Assembly: GCF_003991155.1 (NCBI RefSeq)
Contig: NZ_CP031293.1
Source of the DNA: Escherichia coli
GTDB lineage: Bacteria; Pseudomonadota; Gammaproteobacteria; Enterobacterales; Enterobacteriaceae
Length of the DNA: 64,000 nt
Strand: one strand, 5' to 3'
Shown in pieces: positions 632 through 59,820 of this stretch. The position numbers and the translations under genes are program-made. A model generated the notes under the pieces. It did not search any database. It had not been told where the DNA came from and worked only from the letters and a program-made list of their open reading frames with translations. Within the stretch, counting starts at the first letter, position 1. Every line of letters starts with the position of its first letter.

Positions 632-1035
632 TAAGCCAGGAGACTATTGATCAATAATACTGCGTCATAAGAAATCTCTATTAGACAAAGTAGACGCTCC
701 TTCCACATGCGCCACAAGAAACCTCTATTCCAGTGACACAATTACGCCTGATTATTTCCCTAGCCCGGAATATGAATAAAAACATCAACAAAGATTAAAT
801 TATTCAAACGTTACTGTTGCGTCTGCGGTCGTAACAACAACCGACCTGGTGATGCGTGTTAAAGGAGACACTCTGATGTTCAGGGGGGTTATCACGTATA
901 CGGATCGTGGATGGCAGAAAACAATCAGGATCAGGTATCCATTTTAAACCAGAAATTGAGTGAGTTTGCCCCATCCATGCCCCACGCTGTGGGATCGGAT
1001 GTAATTAAACAAGCATAGTCAACAGGTTACAAAAC

Positions 1036-13563: not shown

Positions 13564-13650
13564 AAATCCCGACCCTGAGGGGGTCGGGATGAAACTTGCT
13601 TAAGCAAGAAGCACTTAAAAAATTCGTTACACCAGGAAATCTGATGTGTT
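13564..13650 (-). ncRNA. dsrA: DsrA small regulatory RNA (Hfq-dependent; activates rpoS translation and antagonises H-NS)
   Basis: Reverse complement matches my recollection of DsrA, including the terminator hairpin CCCGACCCCCTCAGGGTCGGG plus U-run on the minus strand. Confidence 0.85.
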
Positions 13651-17875: not shown

Positions 17876-18808
17876 ATGCGTTTCCGCCAGTTGTTACCGC
17901 TTTTTGGCGCGCTGTTTGCGTTGTATATCATTTGGGGCTCAACCTATTTTGTCATTCGGATTGGAGTGGAAAGCTGGCCTCCATTAATGATGGCGGGCGT
18001 TCGATTCCTGGCAGCCGGTATTTTATTGCTGGCATTTTTGCTACTGCGCGGACACAAACTTCCCCCGCCACGTCCGCTGCTCAATGCCGTGCTGATTGGC
18101 CTGTTATTGCTGGCTGTCGGTAATGGCATGGTGACGGTTGCCGAACATCAAAATGTTCCTTCCGGCATCGCCGCCGTAGTGGTTGCAACCGTGCCCCTCT
18201 TTACCCTGTGCTTCAGCCGCCTGTTTGGCATTAAAACGCGCAAACTGGAATGGGTGGGTATCGCCATTGGGCTTGCCGGAATCATCATGCTCAATAGCGG
18301 TGGAAACTTAAGCGGCAATCCGTGGGGCGCGATTCTTATTTTAATCGGCTCGATTAGCTGGGCGTTTGGCTCGGTTTATGGCTCGGTTTATGGCTCGCGC
18401 ATTACCTTACCTGTAGGGATGATGGCGGGTGCGATTGAGATGCTGGCGGCTGGCGTGGTGTTAATGATTGCGTCGATGATTGCGGGTGAAAAACTGACGG
18501 CGCTCCCTTCCCTTTCAGGCTTCCTTGCGGTCGGCTATCTGGCGCTGTTTGGTTCGATTATCGCCATTAACGCTTATATGTATTTAATCCGCAACGTCAG
18601 TCCGGCTCTCGCCACCAGCTACGCCTACGTTAACCCGGTGGTTGCGGTCTTGCTGGGTACGGGACTGGGCGGCGAAACGCTGTCGAAGATTGAATGGCTG
18701 GCGCTCGGCGTGATTGTCTTCGCGGTGGTACTGGTCACGTTGGGAAAATATCTCTTCCCGGCCAAACCCGTTGTCGCGCCAGTTATTCAGGATGCATCAA
18801 GCGAGTAA
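17876..18808 (+). CDS. yedA: EamA/DMT-family transporter YedA (310 aa here)
   Basis: 10-TM DMT-family protein; contains an in-frame GSVY-GSVY tandem duplication (12-bp repeat near 18367-18390). Confidence 0.9.
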   Translation: MRFRQLLPLFGALFALYIIWGSTYFVIRIGVESWPPLMMAGVRFLAAGILLLAFLLLRGHKLPPPRPLLNAVLIGLLLLAVGNGMVTVAEHQNVPSGIAAVVVATVPLFTLCFSRLFGIKTRKLEWVGIAIGLAGIIMLNSGGNLSGNPWGAILILIGSISWAFGSVYGSVYGSRITLPVGMMAGAIEMLAAGVVLMIASMIAGEKLTALPSLSGFLAVGYLALFGSIIAINAYMYLIRNVSPALATSYAYVNPVVAVLLGTGLGGETLSKIEWLALGVIVFAVVLVTLGKYLFPAKPVVAPVIQDASSE

Positions 18809-21851: not shown

Positions 21852-22398
21852 GACTCAATCATTTTTTGAACAAATAGATAATTTTTGCGCAATGGCAGTG
21901 AATACAGGAAAAATCGTTTTGAGCGATTTTATTTATCTTTGATATCGGCTTTATTAATTCATTCAATCAATATATTAGCACTGATTACAATTATACCTTT
22001 TTATTTTTCTGTGTCATGATGCCTCCGTTATTAGCCTTTTATCGTCTTGTTTATATTTTTTGGGCCGGCATGATGCCGGCTTTTTTTATGCCTTCATTAA
22101 TGTGCGCGTGATCACACCAGCCGTTTGGCGCAACAATCATTGATACCCCCCATGTTTCCGCTCAACTCATAACATATTGATATACATTTATAATTTTCAT
22201 GAATATTTATATTTAGAATTCATAATTCTGAATTATATCAAATAGATTAGAAACATTTTGAAATCTTTTAAATACATTTGTTACATGTAATCTTTAAAAT
22301 AAAATGAACTTCATAGAATAGTATCCAAATGTGCTTTTTTTTGGATAACGGCACTTATTGATATATTCATGAAGATTATAATCACAAGGGAATACATA

Positions 22399-23472
22399 AT
22401 GAAAAGAAAAGTTCTGGCAATGCTGGTCCCGGCGTTATTAGTTGCTGGCGCAGCAAATGCGGCTGAAATTTATAATAAAGATGGCAATAAAGTTGATTTC
22501 TACGGCAAGATGGTTGGCGAACGCATCTGGTCAAATACTGATGATAATAACAGCGAAAACGAAGATACCTCCTATGCTCGTTTCGGTGTTAAAGGTGAAA
22601 CCCAAATCACCAGCGAACTGACTGGTTTTGGTCAGTTTGAATACAACCTCGACGCCAGCAAGCCCGAAGGCTCTAATCAGGAAAAAACCCGTTTAACCTT
22701 CGCAGGTTTGAAATATAACGAGTTAGGATCTTTCGACTATGGTCGTAACTACGGTGTTGCTTATGATGCCGCAGCTTATACCGATATGTTAGTTGAATGG
22801 GGTGGTGATTCCTGGGCGTCCGCTGACAACTTCATGAACGGTCGTACCAACGGTGTTGCAACCTACCGTAACTCTGATTTCTTTGGTCTGGTTGATGGTC
22901 TGAATTTTGCTGTGCAATATCAAGGTAAGAACAGCAATCGTGGCGTTACTAAACAAAACGGTGATGGCTATGCGTTGTCTGTAGACTACAACATCGAAGG
23001 TTTTGGTTTTGTAGGTGCATATAGCAAATCTGATCGTACTAATGAACAAGCTGGTGACGGCTACGGTGATAACGCTGAAGTGTGGTCATTAGCAGCCAAG
23101 TATGATGCAAATAATATCTATGCAGCAATGATGTACGGTGAAACCCGCAACATGACCGTTTTGGCTAATGATCATTTTGCAAATAAAACCCAAAACTTTG
23201 AAGCTGTTGTACAGTATCAGTTCGACTTCGGTTTACGTCCGTCTTTAGGCTACGTATATTCCAAAGGCAAAGATCTTTATGCTCGTGATGGACATAAAGG
23301 TGTTGATGCTGACCGCGTAAATTATATCGAAGTTGGTACCTGGTACTACTTCAATAAGAACATGAACGTCTACACAGCATACAAATTTAACCTGCTGGAT
23401 AAAGACGATGCAGCGATTACCGATGCCGCAACTGATGACCAGTTTGCAGTTGGTATCGTCTACCAGTTCTAA
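22399..23472 (+). CDS. yedS: OmpC/OmpF-family general porin, intact YedS-type
   Basis: Signal peptide [21 protein letters not shown] then [15 protein letters not shown], typical porin beta-barrel sequence ending in F; lies between yedR and hchA. Confidence 0.85.
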
Positions 23473-43001: not shown

Positions 43002-43613
43002 CTATTTTTGTTTATATAAATCGTAGGAACTTAATTTTTTAGATTTCTCATAGGCATTTTCAATGTATAAAGATACATCTGCTAAAAATCGGTCTTCTTC
43101 TATCAATGAAATATAAGAACCAGTCAATTGATCATATGATTTGCACTCAGGGCAACAATATTTATCTTCTGAAGTTAAATTAAACCTATTATTATTAATA
43201 ATGTCATATAGTTCAGTTGTGTCAATAGTTCTTGATGAACATCCATCAGGCTTGATTGAAGAAGATACTAACCAGTCATAGCTATTATTAACCTTCATTA
43301 TCACACCAACAATGCCATTAGTTCGGGAAGTGGTTCCTCCTCTCTTGTATTCTTTCAATGCATATTCAATTTCCCAGTCAATCCATTTACTTTTAATCAT
43401 ATTCGGGGAAATAATAACGATTAAAACAGATGTCCCGAAAATCATATTTTTAAGATTGTTCTTTATATTATCTACTGTTGTATTACTTATATCAGGAGAC
43501 TCCGATGTTTCCCCTTTATAGTAAACAGCATCATCACCTAATGCCTTGACAATTTTGTCTCTTAAATCCTGTGCTTCACTATATTTATATGATATGAATG
43601 TTTCATGAGCCAT
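43002..43613 (-). CDS. thsB: Thoeris ThsB, TIR-domain protein (203 aa)
   Basis: N-terminal FISYKYSEA... TIR-like beginning, about 200 aa, immediately downstream of SIR2-SLOG gene. Confidence 0.75.
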   Translation of the reverse strand: MAHETFISYKYSEAQDLRDKIVKALGDDAVYYKGETSESPDISNTTVDNIKNNLKNMIFGTSVLIVIISPNMIKSKWIDWEIEYALKEYKRGGTTSRTNGIVGVIMKVNNSYDWLVSSSIKPDGCSSRTIDTTELYDIINNNRFNLTSEDKYCCPECKSYDQLTGSYISLIEEDRFLADVSLYIENAYEKSKKLSSYDLYKQK

Positions 43614-43629
43614 AACTTCACCTAATATA

Positions 43630-45066
43630 TTATTTATTCAGTTTGTTTATGATTTTTATTACAACTTCTATTGTTTTTTTTACCGAAAAATCTTTTTCAG
43701 TAAGCTCAGACAAATCATTATATATCCATTCATTACTTCCATAATATTTCTTAGGATCTTGTGATATTTGTTCAAATATATATTTAGACATATACCCGGT
43801 ATTGGGTAAAGGAATTGGTACAAGGCCATGTTGAACAGCAATCTCAAACTCTCTAAATACTCCCCTAGCATTTACTATATCATTATTTTCCTCTTGTTTA
43901 TTTCCAAAAATAAACAATGCAATACCACCAAGAGGAATCATTCTCTGTCTATACTCCTCCCAAAGTTCTTGAATATCTTTCCCCTTACTGACAGTTTGTG
44001 GAAATGGTCTAACAATGAGCTGTTCTTCTGATAATTTATCTGGCCTACTATAAATTGCATCCAACGCACCATTTATCACAGAACTTCCGACGCCCCATCC
44101 AAATCCATTCACTATCCTATAATTATTCTTTATAATCTCATATGCTAATGTGTGAATAAAATCTAATGCTTTAGGTCTTTCAAGATCCCCATATTTTTCT
44201 GCACTACCAGAAATAAATATCGTTTTCTTTTTAAATGATTGCTCTATCTTAGCTAGAATTTTAGGGATGTCAGAATATTCATCTATTAATAATACTTGTA
44301 TACCAAATCTCTTGAGATCATCGATTCGCAGTTTTTGTTTTCTGATCTTATAATTTACTGTTTCTTCATCATCTAGGGAATTATTAGCCTCATTCTTCAT
44401 AAAGCAATAGTGTGTCCTCTTGTCCCCAGAATGAGTATACAAACGACTCAAAATGTAATCCAGATTTGGGTCGGTAAAACTAAACCCTATGAATAGAAAG
44501 GTTTTTGATATTAAATCTCCGCTAAGTGCGGTGATAAATGAAGCGTGTGTTCTGTAGTATTTTTCATACTGCTCTTTATATAAAATAGCCTTGGATGGGG
44601 ACGAAATATCACCATGCATTTTATATACTATCGCGTCTCGCTTAGGTCGTGTTGTATTTAAATCATCTATGTTTCTTTTTACATCTGCAATTTTGTAAAC
44701 TTTCCGCAGACTATCTTCAATTAAAGTGTCATAGTTTGTTGTCCAAAATGTCTTAATCGGTAAACGAGCAATTATATTATGAACCTCTGATGGCTCGGCT
44801 TGCTCAGAAAACTCTTCGATTATCTTCCTTGTGAGTTTTGTAGCCCCTTTCTTTTCATTAACATGAAATTGAGCAAGCGATATTAGATCGTCTTCTTTAT
44901 TAATGTCTAAACTAAGCTCTTCTGCTATATCGCTAAGTAATTCTTTCCAATCAACATAACCTTGACTTTTAGACATTCCTGCGCCAGAAAAAATAGCAGC
45001 ACAATCATTTTCAAGATCTTTAACAAAATCTTTTATGAAAACTTCAATTTCATTACTAAACGTCAT
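43630..45066 (-). CDS. thsA: Thoeris ThsA, SIR2-SLOG NADase effector (478 aa)
   Basis: N-terminal SIR2-like motifs (FSGAGMS, TTNYD, MHGD) and C-terminal SLOG-like glycine-rich region (FISGSAEKYG...GFGWGVGSSVINGALD); start set at MTFSNEIEV with GGAG RBS. Confidence 0.8.
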   Translation of the reverse strand: MTFSNEIEVFIKDFVKDLENDCAAIFSGAGMSKSQGYVDWKELLSDIAEELSLDINKEDDLISLAQFHVNEKKGATKLTRKIIEEFSEQAEPSEVHNIIARLPIKTFWTTNYDTLIEDSLRKVYKIADVKRNIDDLNTTRPKRDAIVYKMHGDISSPSKAILYKEQYEKYYRTHASFITALSGDLISKTFLFIGFSFTDPNLDYILSRLYTHSGDKRTHYCFMKNEANNSLDDEETVNYKIRKQKLRIDDLKRFGIQVLLIDEYSDIPKILAKIEQSFKKKTIFISGSAEKYGDLERPKALDFIHTLAYEIIKNNYRIVNGFGWGVGSSVINGALDAIYSRPDKLSEEQLIVRPFPQTVSKGKDIQELWEEYRQRMIPLGGIALFIFGNKQEENNDIVNARGVFREFEIAVQHGLVPIPLPNTGYMSKYIFEQISQDPKKYYGSNEWIYNDLSELTEKDFSVKKTIEVVIKIINKLNK

Positions 45067-52860: not shown

Positions 52861-52950
52861 TGGCGGAGAGAGGGGGATTTGAACCCCCGGTAGAGTTGCC
52901 CCTACTCCGGTTTTCGAGACCGGTCCGTTCAGCCGCTCCGGCATCTCTCC
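52861..52950 (-). tRNA. serU: tRNA-Ser (anticodon CGA)
   Basis: Reverse complement GGAGAGATGCCGGAGCGGCTGAACGGACCGGTCTCGAAAACCGG...GGTTCAAATCCCCCTCTCTCCGCCA has long variable arm and CGA anticodon. Confidence 0.92.
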
Positions 52951-53941: not shown

Positions 53942-54017
53942 TCCTCTGTAGTTCAGTCGGTAGAACGGCGGACTGTTAATCCGTATGTCACTGGTTCGAG
54001 TCCAGTCAGAGGAGCCA
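53942..54017 (+). tRNA. asnT: tRNA-Asn (anticodon GTT)
   Basis: TCCTCTGTAGTTCAGTCGGTAGAACGGCGGACTGTTAATCCGTATGTCACTGGTTCGAGTCCAGTCAGAGGAGCCA, 76 nt. Confidence 0.93.
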
Positions 54018-54183: not shown

Positions 54184-55446
54184 ATGGCATTAACAGACAC
54201 CGCTATTCGCAAGACTAAACCCTCTGACAAACCCTTCAAAATGACGGACAGTTCTGGACTGTACCTGTTGATCAAACCTAACGGCTCAAAACTCTGGTAT
54301 ATGAAGTACCGCATCGACGGCAAAGAGAAGAAACTGGCCTTTGGCCCCTACCCGGAGATCTCCCTGTTGCAGGCTCGCCGCCTGCGCGAAACAGCACGCA
54401 ATAACATTCATGCAGGCGTCGATCCGGCTGCGGTGAAGCAAACCGAGAAACAGAAGAGGAAAAACGGGCAGACGTTCAGCCAGATCGCCATCAACTGGCA
54501 TAGCGAGCATAAACGCTGGTCTGAGCATTACGCGAAAACGGTTATGCGCAGGCTGGAAATGTACGTTTTCCCGGATATCGGGGATCGCCTTATCGAGGAG
54601 ATCGAAACGGAGGATTTGTTATTCACGTTGCGCAAGGTAGAGAGTAAAGGCTTTCTGGAAATCACCGCGCGGCTGAAAAACTACGTCACCGATATCATGC
54701 ACTACGCGATGAAAAAGAAACTGCTCAAAGCGAACCCGGCGCTGTATCTGGACGGTGAGTTTGCCGCGCCAGAAACCAGTCACTACCCGGCCCTGTCGCT
54801 GGATAAGTTGCCTGAGCTTTTATCCCGGACAGAGAATTACTGCGGCAGGCTGCTGACGAAATACGCCCTCAAACTTTCGCTGCTGTTTTTCGTGCGCTCC
54901 AGCGAGCTACGTTTTGCCCGCTGGAGTGAAATCGACTGGCAGCAAAAACTGTGGGTGATCCCGGAAGAACGCGAGCAGATCGAAAACGTGCGCTTCTCTT
55001 ACCGGGGGGCGAAAATGAAAATCCAGCACATTGTGCCGCTGTCGGATCAGGCGATTGCGATACTGAAGCAGATCGAGGCCCTCTCCGGGCATCTGGCCTT
55101 TATTTTTCCCGGCGAATACGACCAGAACAAGTGCATGAGCGACAACACCGTCAACAAGGCGCTGCGCGTGATGGGTTACGACACCAAAAAGGATATCTGC
55201 GGGCATGGCTTCCGGGCAATGGCCTGTAGTGCGCTGAGCGAATCGGGATTATGGAGCAAAGAAGCCATTGAAAAGCAGATGAGCCACCAGGAAAGAAACA
55301 GCGTCCGTGCTGCCTATATTCACAAGGCTGAATATCTGGAGGAACGGATCGAGATGATGCAGTGGTGGTCAGATTATCTTGATGCAAACAGTGACGGGTA
55401 TGTCTCGGCTTACCAGTATGCCCGCCGCCTAAAACAGGCGTCGTAA
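54184..55446 (+). CDS. P4-like tyrosine integrase of asnT-associated island
   Basis: MALTDTAIRKTKPSDKPFKMTDSSGLYLLIKPNGSKLWYMKYR N-terminus typical of P4-family integrases; directly downstream of the tRNA 3' end. Confidence 0.9.
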   Translation: MALTDTAIRKTKPSDKPFKMTDSSGLYLLIKPNGSKLWYMKYRIDGKEKKLAFGPYPEISLLQARRLRETARNNIHAGVDPAAVKQTEKQKRKNGQTFSQIAINWHSEHKRWSEHYAKTVMRRLEMYVFPDIGDRLIEEIETEDLLFTLRKVESKGFLEITARLKNYVTDIMHYAMKKKLLKANPALYLDGEFAAPETSHYPALSLDKLPELLSRTENYCGRLLTKYALKLSLLFFVRSSELRFARWSEIDWQQKLWVIPEEREQIENVRFSYRGAKMKIQHIVPLSDQAIAILKQIEALSGHLAFIFPGEYDQNKCMSDNTVNKALRVMGYDTKKDICGHGFRAMACSALSESGLWSKEAIEKQMSHQERNSVRAAYIHKAEYLEERIEMMQWWSDYLDANSDGYVSAYQYARRLKQAS

Positions 55447-55746: not shown

Positions 55747-57709
<1,963 letters not shown>

Positions 57710-59340: not shown

Positions 59341-59820
59341 TTAATAGAGTCTCTCTTCCCATAAGCTATATGCACTGGTTCCTGCAACACAGTGCTCCTG
59401 AGTAATACTTTCATAGGTGAATGATATGGCCTCTTCTGGTTGTCCCTGGCTATTGTTGACAGTGTGCGGCACAATATGCTTTATGCTGGCAATGCGGGCG
59501 TTAATCAGCTTCACTTTGAAATACAGCTCGTTAATACCAAAACGGTTGGTGCGGTAATACTCAAAATCACAGGTCAGACACTCATTTTCGCTGATAGCCT
59601 TACTCAACAAAGGGGAAGATTTATCCACGGGTTTCTGAATAATGAGCGCTTGATGATTCACGTTTTGTGCACGGGTTAATCCGTGGCTGAGTCCCAGCAC
59701 CATGATCTGATCCATATGCGCAATCTGCGCTTTGTTCCCAATAGATGCCAGTGATGAACAGCCTGCGGAGATCAGCCCCTGGAGATCGCCGTTCAGTGTC
59801 AGGTAAACAGGATTTGCCAT
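59341..59820 (-). CDS. hcp: Type VI secretion system tube protein Hcp (159 aa)
   Basis: MANPVYLTLNGDLQG...KPVDKSSPLL...ISFTYESITQEH pattern characteristic of the Hcp family. Confidence 0.8.
   Translation of the reverse strand: MANPVYLTLNGDLQGLISAGCSSLASIGNKAQIAHMDQIMVLGLSHGLTRAQNVNHQALIIQKPVDKSSPLLSKAISENECLTCDFEYYRTNRFGINELYFKVKLINARIASIKHIVPHTVNNSQGQPEEAISFTYESITQEHCVAGTSAYSLWEERLY

Follow-up and report, generated by a model that had tools for sequence, protein, structure and literature searches.

An in-frame 12-bp tandem duplication in the Escherichia coli exporter gene yedA as a probable marker of one clonal haplotype

The window analysed in this study is a stretch of 64,000 nucleotides of Escherichia coli DNA in which the genes yedI-yedA-vsr-dcm occur in the same order as in K-12. 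The vsr-dcm pair is convergent to yedA, and the 3' ends of the yedA and vsr coding sequences overlap by 12 bp (18797-18808). A preliminary description made from the nucleotide sequence had named the gene yedA, and both this synteny and the family match of the product bear the name out. The product scores 503 bits against the NCBIfam equivalog NF008432 ('drug/metabolite exporter YedA'), for which the cut-off is 270, with residues 1-295 aligned on profile positions 3-293/294. The EamA domain PF00892 is on record for this product and for its homologues, and the protein is, by family and by predicted fold, most probably an EamA-type exporter of the drug/metabolite transporter (DMT) superfamily. 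Comparison with E. coli strain 2016C-3878 gave no mismatches over 1-38440 and three over 29524-64000 of the window. The annotation of that strain at the duplicated locus is likewise yedA, and the 310-aa protein is already catalogued in public databases as WP_061092998.1. The features annotated in the window are listed in Table 1.

Direct reading of the window found two copies of GGCTCGGTTTAT arranged head-to-tail inside yedA (18368-18391) and followed by GGCTCG, the codons across 18360-18400 being GCG TTT GGC TCG GTT TAT GGC TCG GTT TAT GGC TCG CGC. Tandem Repeats Finder reported a single array here (18367-18397) with a period of 12, 2.6 copies, 100% matches and no indels. The unit had originally been named as GGCTCGGTTTAT, which starts at 18368, and the duplication placed at 18367-18390; that span covers the repeat shifted by one base and reads TGGCTCGGTTTA twice. 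Apart from this shift the repeat is real as described. It had also been described as in-frame, giving GSVY-GSVY and a 310-aa product, and the open reading frame agrees on each count as the protein reads SWAF-GSVY-GSVY-GSR at residues 161-175, with F164 preceding and R175 following the repeat.

The yedA repeat is the only perfect tandem duplication with a period of at least 12 in the 64-kb window, where a first-order Markov simulation expects 0.017 such duplications. The chance expectation for its 19 consecutive period-12 matches is 2e-7, and the repeat is genuine rather than a chance occurrence. Scans for promoters, terminators and inverted repeats around the repeat revealed no feature created by the duplication, and no promoter-like sites were found within 18150-18650. 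A second small perfect tandem repeat is present in yedA, namely GCTGGCG in two copies (period 7, 18442-18455) coding for part of M-L-A-A-G; repeats of this period and size occur at the chance rate in the window (about 5 observed, 5.2 simulated).

Table 1. Positions of yedA, its repeat units and other features annotated in the 64,000-nucleotide window.
Feature	Position	Strand	Remarks
Integrase gene fragment	869-1018		Between yedK and fliE
DsrA sRNA	13564-13650	-	Expected position
yedA coding sequence	17876-18808	+	310 aa including the duplication; from ORF list; NF008432; WP_061092998.1 in strain 2016C-3878
Repeat copy 1, GGCTCGGTTTAT	18368-18379	+	Codons G165 S166 V167 Y168
Repeat copy 2, GGCTCGGTTTAT	18380-18391	+	Codons G169 S170 V171 Y172; K-12, 980-2 and WP2-W18-ESBL-08 have only one of the two copies
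Partial third copy, GGCTCG	18392-18397	+	Codons G173 S174
RseX sRNA	21998-22087	+	Expected position
Tyrosine integrase of island	31103-32323		Annotation transferred from 2016C-3878
MobQ relaxase of island	38338-39819		Annotation transferred from 2016C-3878
TIR-domain gene of island	43002-43613	-	Next to SIR2-family gene
SIR2-family gene of island	43630-45066	-	
tRNA-Asn	53942-54017		
Second integrase	54184-55446		After tRNA-Asn
IS3-family transposase	55747-56924		
isrC match (Rfam)	56806-56928	-	145 bits; at 5' end of the IS3 transposase gene
Type VI secretion Hcp	59341-59820		
Type VI secretion TssM	from 61208		

Direct alignment with the yedA alleles of K-12 (DH5alpha) and strain 980-2 gave a clean gap of 12 bases, both alleles encoding products of 306 aa. 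The K-12 protein is therefore four residues shorter, in agreement with the preliminary description, which had given about four. K-12 YedA shares the gene, the locus and the predicted ten-helix fold with the window protein and is 99% identical to it outside the insertion; the differences are an additional GSVY where transmembrane helix 6 (TM6) ends, plus L65P and A72V. The allele of strain WP2-W18-ESBL-08 (WP_063624916.1, 306 aa) also has a single copy of the unit. When one copy is taken out of the window yedA, only one difference from this allele is left, a synonymous GGA/GGC at codon 30, compared with 24 differences from K-12.

The single-copy relatives 980-2 and WP2-W18-ESBL-08 read TGGCTCGGTTTATGGCTCG at this site, in which the 7-bp direct repeat TGGCTCG occurs twice, 12 bp apart. 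This spacing equals the length of the duplicated unit and the two repeats exactly bound it, the downstream member being represented in the window by T18391 together with 18392-18397. The first repeat reads TGGCTCA in K-12 (TCA instead of TCG), leaving a slippage substrate of only 6 bp. Replication slippage typically leaves a duplication as long as the distance between two short direct repeats that were already there. From this pattern and from established knowledge we infer that the second copy arose by slippage during replication or by a comparable misalignment at microhomologies. Microhomology-mediated short tandem duplications are known from bacterial coding sequences and the yedA repeat fits among them with nothing unusual. 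Slippage across 7-bp repeats could be illustrated by it in a textbook; only the site and the fixation in one clone are specific to this case.

The region around yedA is a recombination mosaic, as follows from its near-identity to WP2-W18-ESBL-08 at 12.0-20.4 kb with divergent flanks. Between 12,000 and 20,370 the two sequences differ at three single positions, of which two lie in 12-14 kb and one in yedA, and by the 12-base indel, whereas 8-12 kb and the region from 20.4 kb onward are 1-2% divergent, and far more so at the porin gene (22399-23472), where the 23-kb bin holds about 155 differences. This porin gene is 1,074 bp long in the window and 1,116 bp in both 980-2 and WP2-W18-ESBL-08. The divergent blocks might argue for import of the yedA allele by recombination from a divergent donor. 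However, the allele lies within the nearly identical block of about 8 kb and, without the second copy, is one synonymous base away from that of its relative, which makes a divergent donor unnecessary. An assembly or sequencing artefact would likewise have to explain how the identical sequence came to be present in 31 independent complete assemblies and in hundreds of contigs, and we regard an origin by either artefact or import as extremely improbable.

The distribution of the duplication was determined with a 121-base probe across the repeat in a set of 5,426 complete E. coli genomes. The site was matched in 5,364 genomes, 31 of which carry the duplication (100% match). The other 5,333 are without the second copy, as their match to the probe spans 109 bases, 12 short of 121. 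Alignment with reference alleles, the check suggested in the preliminary description, thus finds the second copy missing in nearly all genomes with the site as well as in K-12 and 980-2. A further search of the complete E. coli genomes used window 8000-30000 (22 kb) as a haplotype query at a threshold of at least 99% identity. Exactly 31 genomes passed (99.9-100% identical), and these are without exception the carriers of the duplication; the next-best genome is 98.6% identical. Since probe and haplotype retrieve the same 31 genomes, every complete genome with this haplotype has two copies.

No single-copy revertants were found on the same 22-kb haplotype among the complete genomes. A three-copy allele was also not found, as a synthetic three-copy probe gave no end-to-end match in a single piece in the 5,426 genomes; the identity bands of this probe carry no information, since BLAST broke the alignments into pieces. 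Perfect tandem repeats such as this one, with 2.6 units, may act as hypermutable contingency (phase-variable) loci in which the copy number switches frequently. Such switching is difficult to reconcile with 31 carriers out of 31 having exactly two full copies and with the lack of longer or reverted alleles. In addition, the 12-bp unit is a multiple of three and its slippage could not switch the reading frame. We therefore give almost no credence to a phase-variable role.

Sequence types are published for three of the 31 carriers, counting complete genomes only, and all three are ST457, namely MRY15-117 and MRY15-131 (PMC5430464) and CREC-544 (PMC5884925). The carriers were obtained from humans, cattle, pigs, sheep, poultry, dogs, a cat, mink, wastewater and surface water on several continents. 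The exact 310-aa sequence is also present on 425 contigs and in 813 index blocks of a larger protein collection, with constant neighbours where these were read, and the yedA genes of three further carrier loci that we fetched are identical to that of the window. Taken over the complete genomes, this distribution indicates a duplication that is fixed in one clonal haplotype (ST457 in the typed carriers) and marks it, instead of varying freely between strains, and it points to a single origin. The preliminary description had spoken of a small slipped-strand polymorphism; the slippage is upheld by the 7-bp TGGCTCG repeat in the relatives, while the notion of a variable site gives way to that of a clonal marker. 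The 7-bp substrate is present, unduplicated, in at least the 45 genomes that agree with the probe in everything but the duplication, and the window contains 145 direct repeats of at least 7 bp at periods 8-30. Both counts argue that the event was rare and not driven by the site.

A second region was considered as an independent marker of the lineage but was rejected. The 22-kb asd-gnt-ugp-livF block, located 2.5 Mb away (2016C-3878, 4,100,000-4,122,000), is about 100% identical in 41 genomes which comprise all 31 carriers and ten non-carriers. At least one of these non-carriers, LWY24, is published as ST93 (PMC8025056); our literature look-up found no published sequence types for the other non-carrier relatives. 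Such a distribution implies that the block was probably shared recently across sequence types. As it is not specific to the lineage, it cannot show whether any ST457 genome is without the duplication.

The position of the insertion in the protein was examined by aligning the variant to K-12 YedA together with 99 proteins that each represent a 50%-identity cluster (33-72% identical). None of the 100 diverse homologues has residues in the four inserted columns, and natural length variation among them starts only after residues 174-180. The flanking positions are highly conserved (W162 in 96/101 sequences, G169 in 94/101, and S or T at position 170 in 96/101). The segment, previously described as membrane-proximal, can be placed more precisely at the C-terminal end of TM6, within the conserved W-A-x-G-S motif, which is free of indels and the best conserved of the family. 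The absence of length changes in homologues, together with the 93-95% conservation of the flanking W, G and S/T, makes the site look structurally constrained.

AlphaFold2 models built on these alignments gave a pLDDT of 91.8 for the variant and 92.8 for the wild type, with a pTM of 0.89 for both. TM6 spans residues 149-169 in the wild-type model and 149-173 in that of the variant, and the next helix starts at 182 instead of 179, three residues later in variant numbering. The four inserted residues are therefore modelled as one extra helical turn. Helix geometry gives a lengthening of about 6 Å with a net rotation of about 40 degrees for four residues; the W-A-F-G-S-V-Y segment stays intact, and the displaced part is the G-S-R-I-T-L-P that follows it. 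Local confidence is reduced just after the insertion, the block 171-180 averaging 85 as against 95-96 in the wild type. AlphaFold2 is insensitive to destabilising changes. With a constrained site and this local drop in confidence, the reading that the insertion is tolerated is a weak one.

The yedA protein had no match at E<=0.01 among the sequences of the PDB, and the fold was therefore placed by AlphaFold2 and Foldseek. The variant model has ten long helices in a DMT fold, and matches at a probability of 1.00 were found to YddG (5i20), the triose-phosphate translocator TPT (5y78) and LicB (7paf). Among bacterial structures the model agrees best with that of YddG, the structurally characterised DMT amino-acid exporter of bacteria (TM-score 0.74-0.82, about 21% identity). 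It is nevertheless a different gene without the duplication, and is too distant to be found by the PDB sequence search. In the model figure of one paper, YedA appears beside YddG as a tryptophan exporter (PMC11562630). The physiological substrates and the role of YedA are poorly defined.

Other natural yedA alleles show sporadic in-frame deletions of 4, 7, 10, 11, 13 and 19 residues (entries P0077-P0118 of the protein collection). These occur in single isolates or small clusters and some fall within helices. One of them, P0095, is without FGSVYGSRIT at the site of the duplication. The 302-aa entry P0078 was considered as a reciprocal deletion of GSVY but was rejected, as alignment placed its four-residue deletion in LAFL of TM2. 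Because in-frame deletions recur sporadically, yedA looks dispensable in nature, and the deletions suggest that purifying selection on the gene may be weak.

These observations have a bearing on whether the insertion inactivates YedA, in which case GSVY would mis-register TM6 against its partner helices and yedA would effectively be a cryptic pseudogene in this lineage. The constrained site, with none of the 100 homologues changed in length there and W162, G169 and S/T170 highly conserved, would be in keeping with inactivation, as would the local drop in pLDDT and the apparent dispensability of the gene. On the other hand, the W-A-F-G-S-V-Y motif is whole on the N-terminal side, the extra turn is added at a helix end that adjoins a loop of variable length in homologues, and AlphaFold2 keeps the fold. 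There is also no sign of secondary decay, the yedA reading frame being annotated intact in all listed carriers, although this has little power in a young clone. We consider inactivation to be a serious alternative, although less likely than not.

The opposite proposal is that the extra turn of TM6 alters the gating or the substrate range of YedA and so aided the success of multidrug-resistant ST457. The insertion does fall in a conserved motif of a substrate-translocating helix, and its fixation in 31/31 complete genomes of the haplotype from many hosts and several continents could be read in this way. Any neutral founder mutation is, however, expected to be fixed in a clone. Moreover, none of the 5,333 other genomes has acquired the duplication independently, although the 7-bp substrate is present in at least the 45 mentioned above. 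Our literature search found no papers joining yedA with ST457, and one source calls the contribution of YedA to antimicrobial resistance unknown (bioRxiv 10.64898/2026.03.06.710075). An adaptive role is thus very improbable. Further literature matches to the name 'yedA' concern a pecM-like gene in Tn1721-type transposons and the first name of an author, and are irrelevant here.

The explanation that we prefer starts from an ancestral allele with TGGCTCG twice, 12 bp apart, between which a misalignment would have produced the 12-bp in-frame duplication once. The duplicated allele would then have been passed on vertically in one clonal E. coli lineage with its copy number unchanged. In the protein, the extra GSVY is predicted to lengthen TM6 by about one turn and to shift the following R-I-T-L-P loop outward while the ten-helix DMT fold is kept. 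We assign a probability of roughly 0.88 to this explanation as a whole, that is, a single slippage origin, vertical clonal inheritance, and an extension of TM6 by about one turn with the fold intact. As to its effect, our best guess is that the allele goes back to a founder mutation, neutral or mildly impairing, in a dispensable gene, and that it probably reached fixation by hitch-hiking with the clone and not by selection.

The 12-bp length difference can be scored by PCR, and the allele thus marks one clonal E. coli haplotype (ST457 in the typed carriers) in a clean, stable and easily assayed way. Service as a lineage marker is, at most, the only practical value of the duplication, and its interest grows only if the extra helical turn proves to alter or prevent the export activity of YedA.

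Several other features were found in the remainder of the window. An integrative island of about 21 kb (approximately 31,100-52,860) lies between zinT and tRNA-Ser(cga) (52861-52950, minus strand). Besides the integrase and the relaxase, it contains, by annotation taken over from strain 2016C-3878, genes for a PilV shufflon-type adhesin, a BfpA-like type IV pilin, TraD and RepL, and two H-NS-like genes. The second integrase, which follows tRNA-Asn, is succeeded by a truncated RelE/ParE toxin gene and the IS3-family transposase. The type VI secretion genes, which include one with a VasL domain, run off the end of the window. Within the island, the adjacent SIR2-family and TIR-domain genes resemble a Thoeris-type anti-phage defence pair.
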